DNA of 64,000 nucleotides, taken from an uncultured Clostridia bacterium. GTDB lineage: Bacteria > CAYTYR01 > UBA6262. The notes beneath the pieces were generated by a model. That model made no database searches. It worked only from the letters and a program-made list of their open reading frames with translations, and had not been told where the DNA came from. This document shows, piece by piece, positions 14,300 through 14,476 of this stretch; within the stretch, counting starts at the first letter, position 1, and the number at the start of each line of letters is the position of its first letter. The stretch is from the NCBI GenBank assembly GCA_964441745.1, contig CAYTYR010000010.1:11464-75463 (forward strand), read 5' to 3'. The position numbers and the translations under genes were made by a program.

Positions 14300-14476
14300 C
14301 GTCGCATAAACCAAGTTCTGCTCCTCCTCATAGGAGACACCACTAACATGGTTTCTCCTTCTGATTCTCGGTTGATGCAGTTATTGTTTCAATCAACTTG
14401 CCTTGGCAACCTCGAGTCATCCTCCTCCGGGTTATGATCAAGGTCACGCTTTCACAAGCTAACAAGGTGTGCGGGG
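14300..14476 (-). ncRNA. Candidate structured non-coding RNA of unassigned class
   Basis: The 5' and 3' ends can form an interrupted closing stem, and several internal hairpins are visible (AGGAGAAACCAT-GTTA-GTGGTGTCTCCT; GTTGAT...ATCAAC; TTGCC-AA-GGCAA). It fills the spacer between two co-oriented tRNAs. Confidence 0.4.

Follow-up and report, generated by a model that had tools for sequence, protein, structure and literature searches.

Bacterial tRNA 5' leaders are usually regarded as short, unstructured sequence that is discarded. The 64,000-nucleotide stretch of DNA analysed here (the window), from an uncultured Clostridia bacterium, contains a tRNA cluster which raises the question of what a long and strongly folding sequence represents when it stands directly before a tRNA gene. 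Read on the minus strand, the gene order is tRNA-Arg(CCG) (14715-14788), tRNA-Lys(CTT) (14483-14556, found by ARAGORN and by the Rfam tRNA model with 69 bits) and tRNA-Leu(TAG) (14214-14297), the first and last of these being tRNA gene calls. The Lys-Leu spacer, read 5' to 3' from Lys to Leu, occupies 14298-14482 (185 nt), and its 3' edge is the 5' end of tRNA-Leu. It begins, immediately 3' of tRNA-Lys, with a U7 run and a short linker (14471-14482, minus strand), read from the sequence and not conserved in other copies of the element; this U-run could weaken read-through. The remainder (14298-14470, minus strand) represents a single copy of a structured module that resides in the 5' leaders of genes and whose family is uncatalogued.

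The RNA fold predicted for the spacer reaches -57.7 kcal/mol, against -44.4 +/- 3.9 kcal/mol for 200 dinucleotide shuffles (z -3.4, with none of the 200 as good), and the opposite strand folds almost as well (z -3.1). A first-pass annotation of this DNA, made from sequence alone, was right in crediting the spacer with more pairing potential than chance, in placing its end against the 5' end of tRNA-Leu, where RNase P would set the 3' end of the element, and in finding no known RNA family to match. Rfam 15, the check which that annotation had proposed, was run on 14000-15100: the tRNAs alone reached the gathering score, only chance-level matches appeared at E<=10, and the element is still without assignment.

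Two relationships that had been floated were not supported. The length of the spacer recalls 6S RNA (RF00013), and a long interrupted closing stem occurs in the predicted fold of the Leu copy only; this stem, which was behind the comparison, is not conserved, and the module, in contrast to 6S RNA, is multi-copy and has no central-bubble architecture. The true 6S RNA of this genome is located elsewhere (64 bits, above cut-off, G000:C13:51433-51588), and the 6S covariance model gives no match within 14000-15100 at E<=10. An intron relic is disfavoured by the lack of any group I or II signal at E<=10 and by the position of the element outside the tRNA. A coding reading was also rejected: three ORFs overlap the spacer, with lengths of 55, 47 and 60 aa, and extend into tRNA genes, and the loop indels between copies are not multiples of three.

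Copies of the module within the genome

With the 42 tRNA genes of the genome listed, copies were searched for with an nhmmer profile and two covariance models, R1 and R2. Eleven strong copies were found (39.8-103 bits with R1, 68.6-96.2 bits with R2), each upstream of, and in the same orientation as, a different tRNA gene, namely Leu(TAG), Thr(GGT), Trp, Gly(CCC), Gly(TCC), Ala(GGC), Ala(CGC), Pro(TGG), Ser(GCT), Arg(CCT) and Cys, while degenerate copies precede Asn, Ser(GGA) and Arg(CCG). The module is therefore not the single RNA gene that a new ncRNA class had suggested, having at least 11 paralogous copies; what stands of that suggestion is that the element is structured and that its family appears not to have been described before. 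Directly upstream of about one third of this bacterium's tRNA genes a module is present, and many copies have no tRNA on their own upstream side. Rfam, applied to the other copies and to those of the second phylum described below, returned no family and only chance-level matches.

The copy before tRNA-Cys is parted from its gene by a 400-nt insertion. At this locus (L012:400-800, G000:C5:35550-35950), a repeat interrupts the anticodon arm of one tRNA-Cys copy, which ends after the anticodon loop; a small ORF for a GIY-YIG-type nuclease lies downstream, an intact tRNA-Cys follows it, and the leader module stays with the broken copy. The same large tRNA-Cys leader spacing is also seen in the genomes G003 and G004.

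Parts of the conserved core

In the Leu copy, the covariance-model match that delimits the core covers 14323-14431 of the minus strand (R1 83.1 bits; R2 78.6 bits, E 1.8e-19), and all the parts given here are on that strand. The order common to the copies is GGRRGRGGRUGAC, AGYGAGG, P2 with its variable loop, CGA-R-C-G-Y-CA, P3 and CUAUGRRGAG. The 5' purine-rich motif GGAGGAGGAUGAC (14416-14428) is conserved in sequence in alignments A6 and A8, in which no covarying partner was found for it. The P2 domain (14365-14415) is opened by AGYGAGG in most copies and by UCGAGG in the Leu copy, and consists of a GGUUG/CAACC helix, a variable loop of ~30 nt, which holds an extra hairpin in some copies, and CGA-R-N on the 3' side. 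The P3 domain (14328-14364) combines a 3-bp extension (UCA/UGA), an internal loop and a 9-bp hairpin, GGAGAAACC/GGUGUCUCC, pieces of which are found by BLAST at four other places in the genome, each just upstream of a tRNA gene. A purine-rich tail of 25 nt (14298-14322) follows, with CGAC directly before tRNA-Leu +1. In its minimal form the core measures ~73 nt, with invariant junction nucleotides and variable or optional stems.

Upstream of the core, a conserved block, CCTTGTTAGCTTGTGAAAGCGTG (14445-14467), recurs with the same spacing in 14 copies, at a fixed ~46 nt before the UGAC motif. Its six closer matches in this genome (up to four substitutions) all precede tRNA genes, and five of them adjoin a strong leader copy; the block is possibly the partner of the purine motif in a putative helix, P0. 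It was also considered as a sigma-70 promoter, a reading rejected for lack of a consistent -10 element, genuine tRNA promoters here being canonical.

The conserved unit is thus ~110 nt plus the tail, shorter than the ~175 nt first proposed, and the stems of the first-pass annotation fared unevenly against it. Its closing stem (CGCA/TGCG and further steps) and the CCT-TGAT/ATCA-AGG part of its inner stem do occur in the minimum-energy fold of this copy but are not conserved: the flanks that form them are unrelated in other copies, and the whole spacer is absent from sister genomes. The minimum-energy fold of the Leu copy, moreover, does not use the conserved P2. Within the inner stem, only the CTCG..GTTG/CAAC-CGAG segment is retained, as it overlaps the covarying P2, and one of the proposed hairpins is the covarying P3.

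The leader module tolerates insertions between GUGAC and AGYGAG and at P3. In the Trp, Ala(GGC) and Pro leaders (L004, L006, L010), the two motifs are separated by a small inserted hairpin, CCCGCC...GGCGGG, which is a dispersed repeat in its own right; the same hairpin replaces P3 in the Ser(GGA) leader.

Covariation evidence for the fold

Covariation was assessed in 43 copies aligned to R2, an alignment that is fitted by the model and favours the structure of the model. Among the cells of proposed pairs, 91.5% hold standard base pairs, against 76% in shuffles and 43-57% with slid partners, and both partners have changed in 14 of the 19 pairs. All 43 copies (100%) form the P3 extension, and all three of its pairs covary (UCA/UGA, CCG/CGG, ACG/UGU, CCA/UGG and CAA/UUG), while P3 itself is paired in 90.7% and P2 in 83.9%, with four of the five P2 pairs changed on both sides. 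Next to P2, a covarying GY/RC step of two pairs is 97.5% paired, and between this step and P2 most copies carry a tandem G.A/A.G step, replaced by G-C/A-U in two or three copies, including two minimal units of the metagenomic contig L228; because such replacements occur, the positions of the G.A/A.G step are understood to face each other in one continuous helix. Despite the model-fitted alignment, the covariation signal is argued to be real because of the slid-partner controls and of the compensatory changes visible by eye in MAFFT alignments. The family therefore exhibits the compensatory changes by which a structured RNA family is recognised.

The conserved fold consists of two adjacent hairpins, P2 with its tandem G.A step and P3 with its internal loop and 3-bp extension, and a conserved purine-rich single strand, GGRRGRGGRUGAC-AGYGAGG, precedes both. 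Since the excess of G.U pairs (17) over A.C mismatches (10) is modest, a fold at the RNA level is likely, yet unproven over a fold of single-stranded DNA. Two further pairings were tried and rejected. A helix P1 (UGAC/GUCA) has no changes on both sides and clashes with the fully covarying P3 extension; pairing of the 5' purine motif with the 3' strand of P3, or its part in a base triple, displays two states only, tied to subfamilies, and is hence unproven.

A conserved fold in a 5' leader, together with the short alternative pairings that can be drawn (UGAC or UGA with GUCA; the 5' G-run with the 3' strand of P3), would suit a riboswitch or attenuator that, on sensing a ligand or uncharged tRNA, controls read-through to the tRNA. 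However, no terminator-like site or other expression platform follows P3 and the alternative P1 pairing lacks covariation. Because the downstream genes, coding for tRNAs with 12 or more identities and for housekeeping proteins unrelated to one another, have no functional coherence, a specific sensor is disfavoured, and gating of this kind is barely credible.

Distribution across genomes

The collection holds nine species-level genomes of this small candidate phylum, eight of which carry the module; DNA of the lineage occurs in aquatic or groundwater samples. A co-oriented tRNA lies downstream of 33 of the 39 model matches across genomes, in 27 cases within 65 nt, and no strong tRNA-linked copy in the opposite orientation was seen among the 39. 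The tails from core to tRNA +1 mostly fall into two classes, ~21-30 nt and, with an extra hairpin, 45 nt, and many end in CGAC; at larger distances, a fragment of a tRNA 5' part, then an inserted repeat or gene, lies between. Apart from those of the type-3 variant described below, nearly all copies keep the orientation of the downstream gene. Within this phylum, the module is locked in position and orientation 5' of tRNA genes, with its tail against the mature tRNA.

Among ~140 genomes sampled from other phyla, one contains copies (G115, 1.4 Mb), and in the six-genome phylum to which it belongs five genomes have 2-10 copies each. In this second phylum, a core of ~73-80 nt stands before unrelated housekeeping genes, in most cases 17-95 nt upstream of the start: PCMT, TruA, DapF, Sua5/TsaC, ParA, an amidase, a LolA-like protein, a lipid A acyltransferase, S21, arginase, an NADH dehydrogenase subunit and others, one copy only being near tRNAs. 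A link to tRNA biology through truA and tsaC was considered and dropped, the 20 downstream genes being unrelated.

A longer conserved leader, of ~150-170 nt by alignment, was noted in three G115 copies (L261, L262, L263) and in one copy (L028) of G001, a genome of the window's own genus, and is thus common to two phyla. Its parts are a 5' hairpin, several G and C runs (candidate pseudoknots), the core and a further hairpin, CCCCGAAGGGG. The genes that it immediately precedes are truA, tsaC and those of a lipoprotein and a membrane protein, and it has no Rfam match.

A loose pattern scan of genome contigs returned at least 120 stretches, and among the 80 listed and scored with the model one was real, in a relative carrying the module ('MAG: bacterium isolate STB_132', L094). 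The same approach in metagenomes gave 83 stretches, of which 80 were scored by the model and one was real (contig L228), and two matches in viral contigs, neither confirmed by the model. Contig L228 holds five copies in tandem arrays before tRNA-Ser genes.

The L228 arrays (1-400 and 7570-8000) contain two to three minimal units each. In the array before tRNA-Ser(UGA), bases 1-7 of that tRNA come after every unit; in the other array these seven bases recur in near-identical form, and at one of its junctions the 5' motif of the next unit takes their place. On this contig alone, the pattern suggests that the 5' motif arose from the 5' end of a tRNA; the idea is not general and was set aside.

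Across the three lineages, the unpaired nucleotides of the core are conserved. The family is multi-copy, covariation-supported and absent from Rfam, it is exchangeable between loci, and it has relatives in at least two lineages besides that of the window.

Known small self-cleaving ribozymes combine a small core and many copies with a patchy spread and unrelated neighbours. Hammerhead, twister, pistol, hatchet and HDV-like ribozymes are generally known to have optional stems and to occur in tandem arrays as well, and the module resembles them in all these respects: a ~73-nt minimal core with invariant junction nucleotides and variable or optional stems, many copies, at times tandem, and a patchy presence over unrelated small-genome lineages before unrelated genes. 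The module could accordingly be imagined as an independent processing element by which polycistronic precursors and leaders are cut, whether as a self-cleaving ribozyme of a new kind or as the hairpin that a dedicated endonuclease recognises. However, its core motifs differ from those of the ribozymes named, it matches none of their Rfam models nor any other Rfam ribozyme family, no cleavage site is inferable, tRNA 5' ends have no need of such an element with RNase P present, and the case is circumstantial throughout, which makes this reading improbable. A wider proposal, in which the core is a candidate functional RNA class (a self-cleaving or nuclease-guiding processing element, or a protein-binding handle) that marks the 5' leaders of tRNA and housekeeping transcripts and has spread horizontally among several small-genome candidate phyla, is doubtful.

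Turnover at orthologous loci

Three sister species have Lys and Leu genes 100% identical to those of the window, with an unrelated spacer of ~100 nt of AT-rich repeat sequence between them; as the leader is missing there with identical tRNAs, it is dispensable before tRNA-Leu in these species. At the Lys-Leu locus, the module is present only in the species of the window. On a 248-nt contig of an RNA library from peat, the Arg, Lys and Leu tRNAs are nearly identical to those of the window but only 1 and 13 nt apart, in a relative whose cluster is fully compacted; the assembled RNA-library contigs cover the tRNAs, have the spacer outside their span and carry no information on expression.

The closest relative of the Leu leader is found before tRNA-Arg(CCG) of the same cluster in G003 (86% identity over the aligned core, 82% by BLAST). 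Subtypes do not track tRNA identity, the Gly(TCC) leader of this genome being nearest to the Gly(CCC) leader of G004, and at tRNA-Gly(CCC) and two tRNA-Ala genes a leader is kept in 4-6 genomes with differing subtypes. Copies have been exchanged among tRNA loci. No pair of strong copies exceeds 91% identity over the aligned core, and at orthologous loci neither a target-site duplication nor a clean empty site was found, whole spacers being replaced.

These observations bear on the proposal that the spacer is a trans-acting sRNA, a sponge or a protein-sequestering RNA, freed by RNase P and by 3' processing of the upstream tRNA. The exact position between two tRNAs is what it predicts, since processing would free a discrete RNA of ~185 nt, the spacer has several GGAGG-like purine tracts, and spacers of E. 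coli tRNA precursors are described as sRNA sponges in a passage of PMC7213987 that cites Lalaouna 2015. Against it, the upstream tRNA is missing for many copies, the module of the second phylum sits in mRNA leaders, the Leu copy is missing from sister species, and a dozen diverged paralogues would be an odd design for a single trans function. As the element is dispensable at the Lys-Leu locus in sister species, a trans-acting RNA tied to that locus is disfavoured, and the proposal as a whole is very improbable.

Type-3 relatives and the selfish-repeat alternative

Upstream of tRNA-Arg in the window lies a 'type 3' element (14858-14972, minus strand; fold z -4.8), in which the same core is closed by a ~12-bp terminal stem and is matched by R2 with 27.9 bits at 14876-14965. 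Further upstream, a truncated leader start extends from block CCTTGCTAGTTATAAAC through GGAAGAGGAUGAC (14988-15035, minus strand), and repeat family D10 links 14986-15000 to 14414-14428. The genome holds six type-3 copies, in both orientations; some lie at a distance from tRNA genes, their neighbours being a peroxiredoxin gene, an HMGL-like gene and the end of uvrD. Between species, type-3 copies share 90-98% identity within flanking DNA of only 78-86% identity. The ~12-bp terminal inverted repeat is a property of the type-3 relatives and is absent from the Leu copy and the other tRNA-linked types. Type 3 behaves like a MITE-type derivative and looks selfish.

The same might be asked of the whole family. 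A selfish structured DNA repeat, MITE- or REP-like and perhaps moved as single-stranded DNA by a Y1/HUH-type enzyme, would pile up in tRNA 5' flanks, where it is tolerated since RNase P removes it, and would have no host function. Presence and absence varying at orthologous loci with 100% identical tRNAs, subtypes shuffled across loci and genomes, tandem arrays, the inverted repeats, orientations, unrelated neighbours and interspecies identity of type 3, and the abundance of other short repeats in these genomes are all in its favour; subtype shuffling and type-3 copies in both orientations are equally compatible with a selfish repeat and with a functional leader. Nevertheless, copies other than type 3 are almost always co-oriented and at a fixed distance from the downstream gene, where random insertion predicts otherwise, spacers are replaced whole with no target-site duplication or clean insertion boundary, the 91% ceiling on the identity of strong copies gives no sign of a recent burst, and unpaired nucleotides are conserved in three lineages. 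Strict orientation and the conserved unpaired nucleotides together disfavour a purely random selfish repeat, and selfishness of the family as a whole is possible but on the unlikely side.

A proposed portable module of 5' leaders

The reading preferred here, held with middling confidence, is that of a portable, cis-acting module of 5' leaders which is co-transcribed with the gene that it leads and is a candidate for removal by RNase P. A promoter scan of the Lys-Leu spacer gave nothing convincing, and because no canonical promoter is present the module would be transcribed from upstream, within an Arg-Lys-Leu precursor. Leaderless tRNA operons of this genome have canonical TTGACA-17-TATAAT promoters, and tRNA-Gly(CCC) has a good promoter-like site ~100 nt upstream of its leader. 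In the precursor, the module would fold independently of its neighbours, and the RNase P cut that makes the 5' end of tRNA-Leu would release it; position and orientation are consistent with this, and the genome has an RNase P RNA gene (type A, 247 bits, G000:C14:16622-17063, ~1.4 kb downstream of a Met-Val tRNA pair on the same strand). The module would act in cis on the transcript that it leads, most likely as a protein-binding, nuclease-blocking or processing handle with an influence on how stable the downstream RNA is or how it matures, and probably not as a sensor of a particular metabolite, and it may spread via recombination or some other form of mobility.

About one third of the tRNA genes in a little-known candidate phylum have in common a fold of ~110 nt, backed by covariation and outside Rfam. 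Should the module act on RNA, for instance through stability, processing or protein recruitment, it would be a leader device of general use and of a new kind; should it be selfish, it would be a rare example of specialisation of a repeat for tRNA 5' flanks. Either way, it is a candidate new RNA family and accounts for several odd spacers in these genomes. No account of a conserved structured leader common to many bacterial tRNA genes was found in the literature, which does not prove that none exists.

Comparison with known systems

The module is a member of none of the systems with which it was compared. In location, the nearest likeness is with the spacers of E. coli tRNA precursors (3'ETS-leuZ and the internal spacers of metZ-metW-metV), which, according to the passage of PMC7213987 citing Lalaouna et al. 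2015, are set free by tRNA processing and can be functional. Like the module, which is known here from sequence, they are non-tRNA sequence inside a tRNA precursor; they are single-locus, short and largely unstructured and pair with sRNAs, whereas the module is multi-copy, structured and exchangeable, lies on the 5' side and is also found in mRNA leaders.

In mode of spread, the nearest likeness is with structured intergenic repeats that are transcribed along with their neighbours (BOX, Correia/NEMIS, REP/BIME, ERIC; stem-loop repeat families are surveyed in PMC2267715), which also have dozens of diverged copies per genome, the potential to fold as RNA, a modular build and gain or loss between close relatives, and whose terminal inverted repeats are shared with the type-3 variant. 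In contrast to these, tRNA-linked copies of the module are locked in orientation and adjoin the 5' end of the downstream gene, the unpaired nucleotides are conserved in three distant lineages, and neither sequence similarity nor target duplication was seen. ROOL and GOLLD are structured bacterial orphan RNAs often encoded near tRNA genes (PMC12286853); they measure 500-800+ nt, are usually single-copy and phage- or prophage-borne and are present in Rfam, whereas the module is ~75-150 nt long, multi-copy and chromosomal, with no Rfam match.

Other repeats around the cluster

These genomes are full of short dispersed repeats. In the Arg-Lys-Leu cluster, the 5'-terminal 17 bases of tRNA-Arg(CCG) occur twice (14841-14857 and 14772-14788, minus strand), with a 33-nt REP-like repeat (14808-14840) between the two copies, and the same layout is found in the sister species G003 (L017:1609-1723); because the duplication is also present there, it is attributed to an insertion into the D-arm region of tRNA-Arg with a regenerated 5' part. 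The 33-nt hairpin repeat, the copies of which in sister genomes are mostly 94-97% identical, and the AT-rich units of the Arg-Lys spacer (14571-14702) occur at dozens of sites in the sister genomes.
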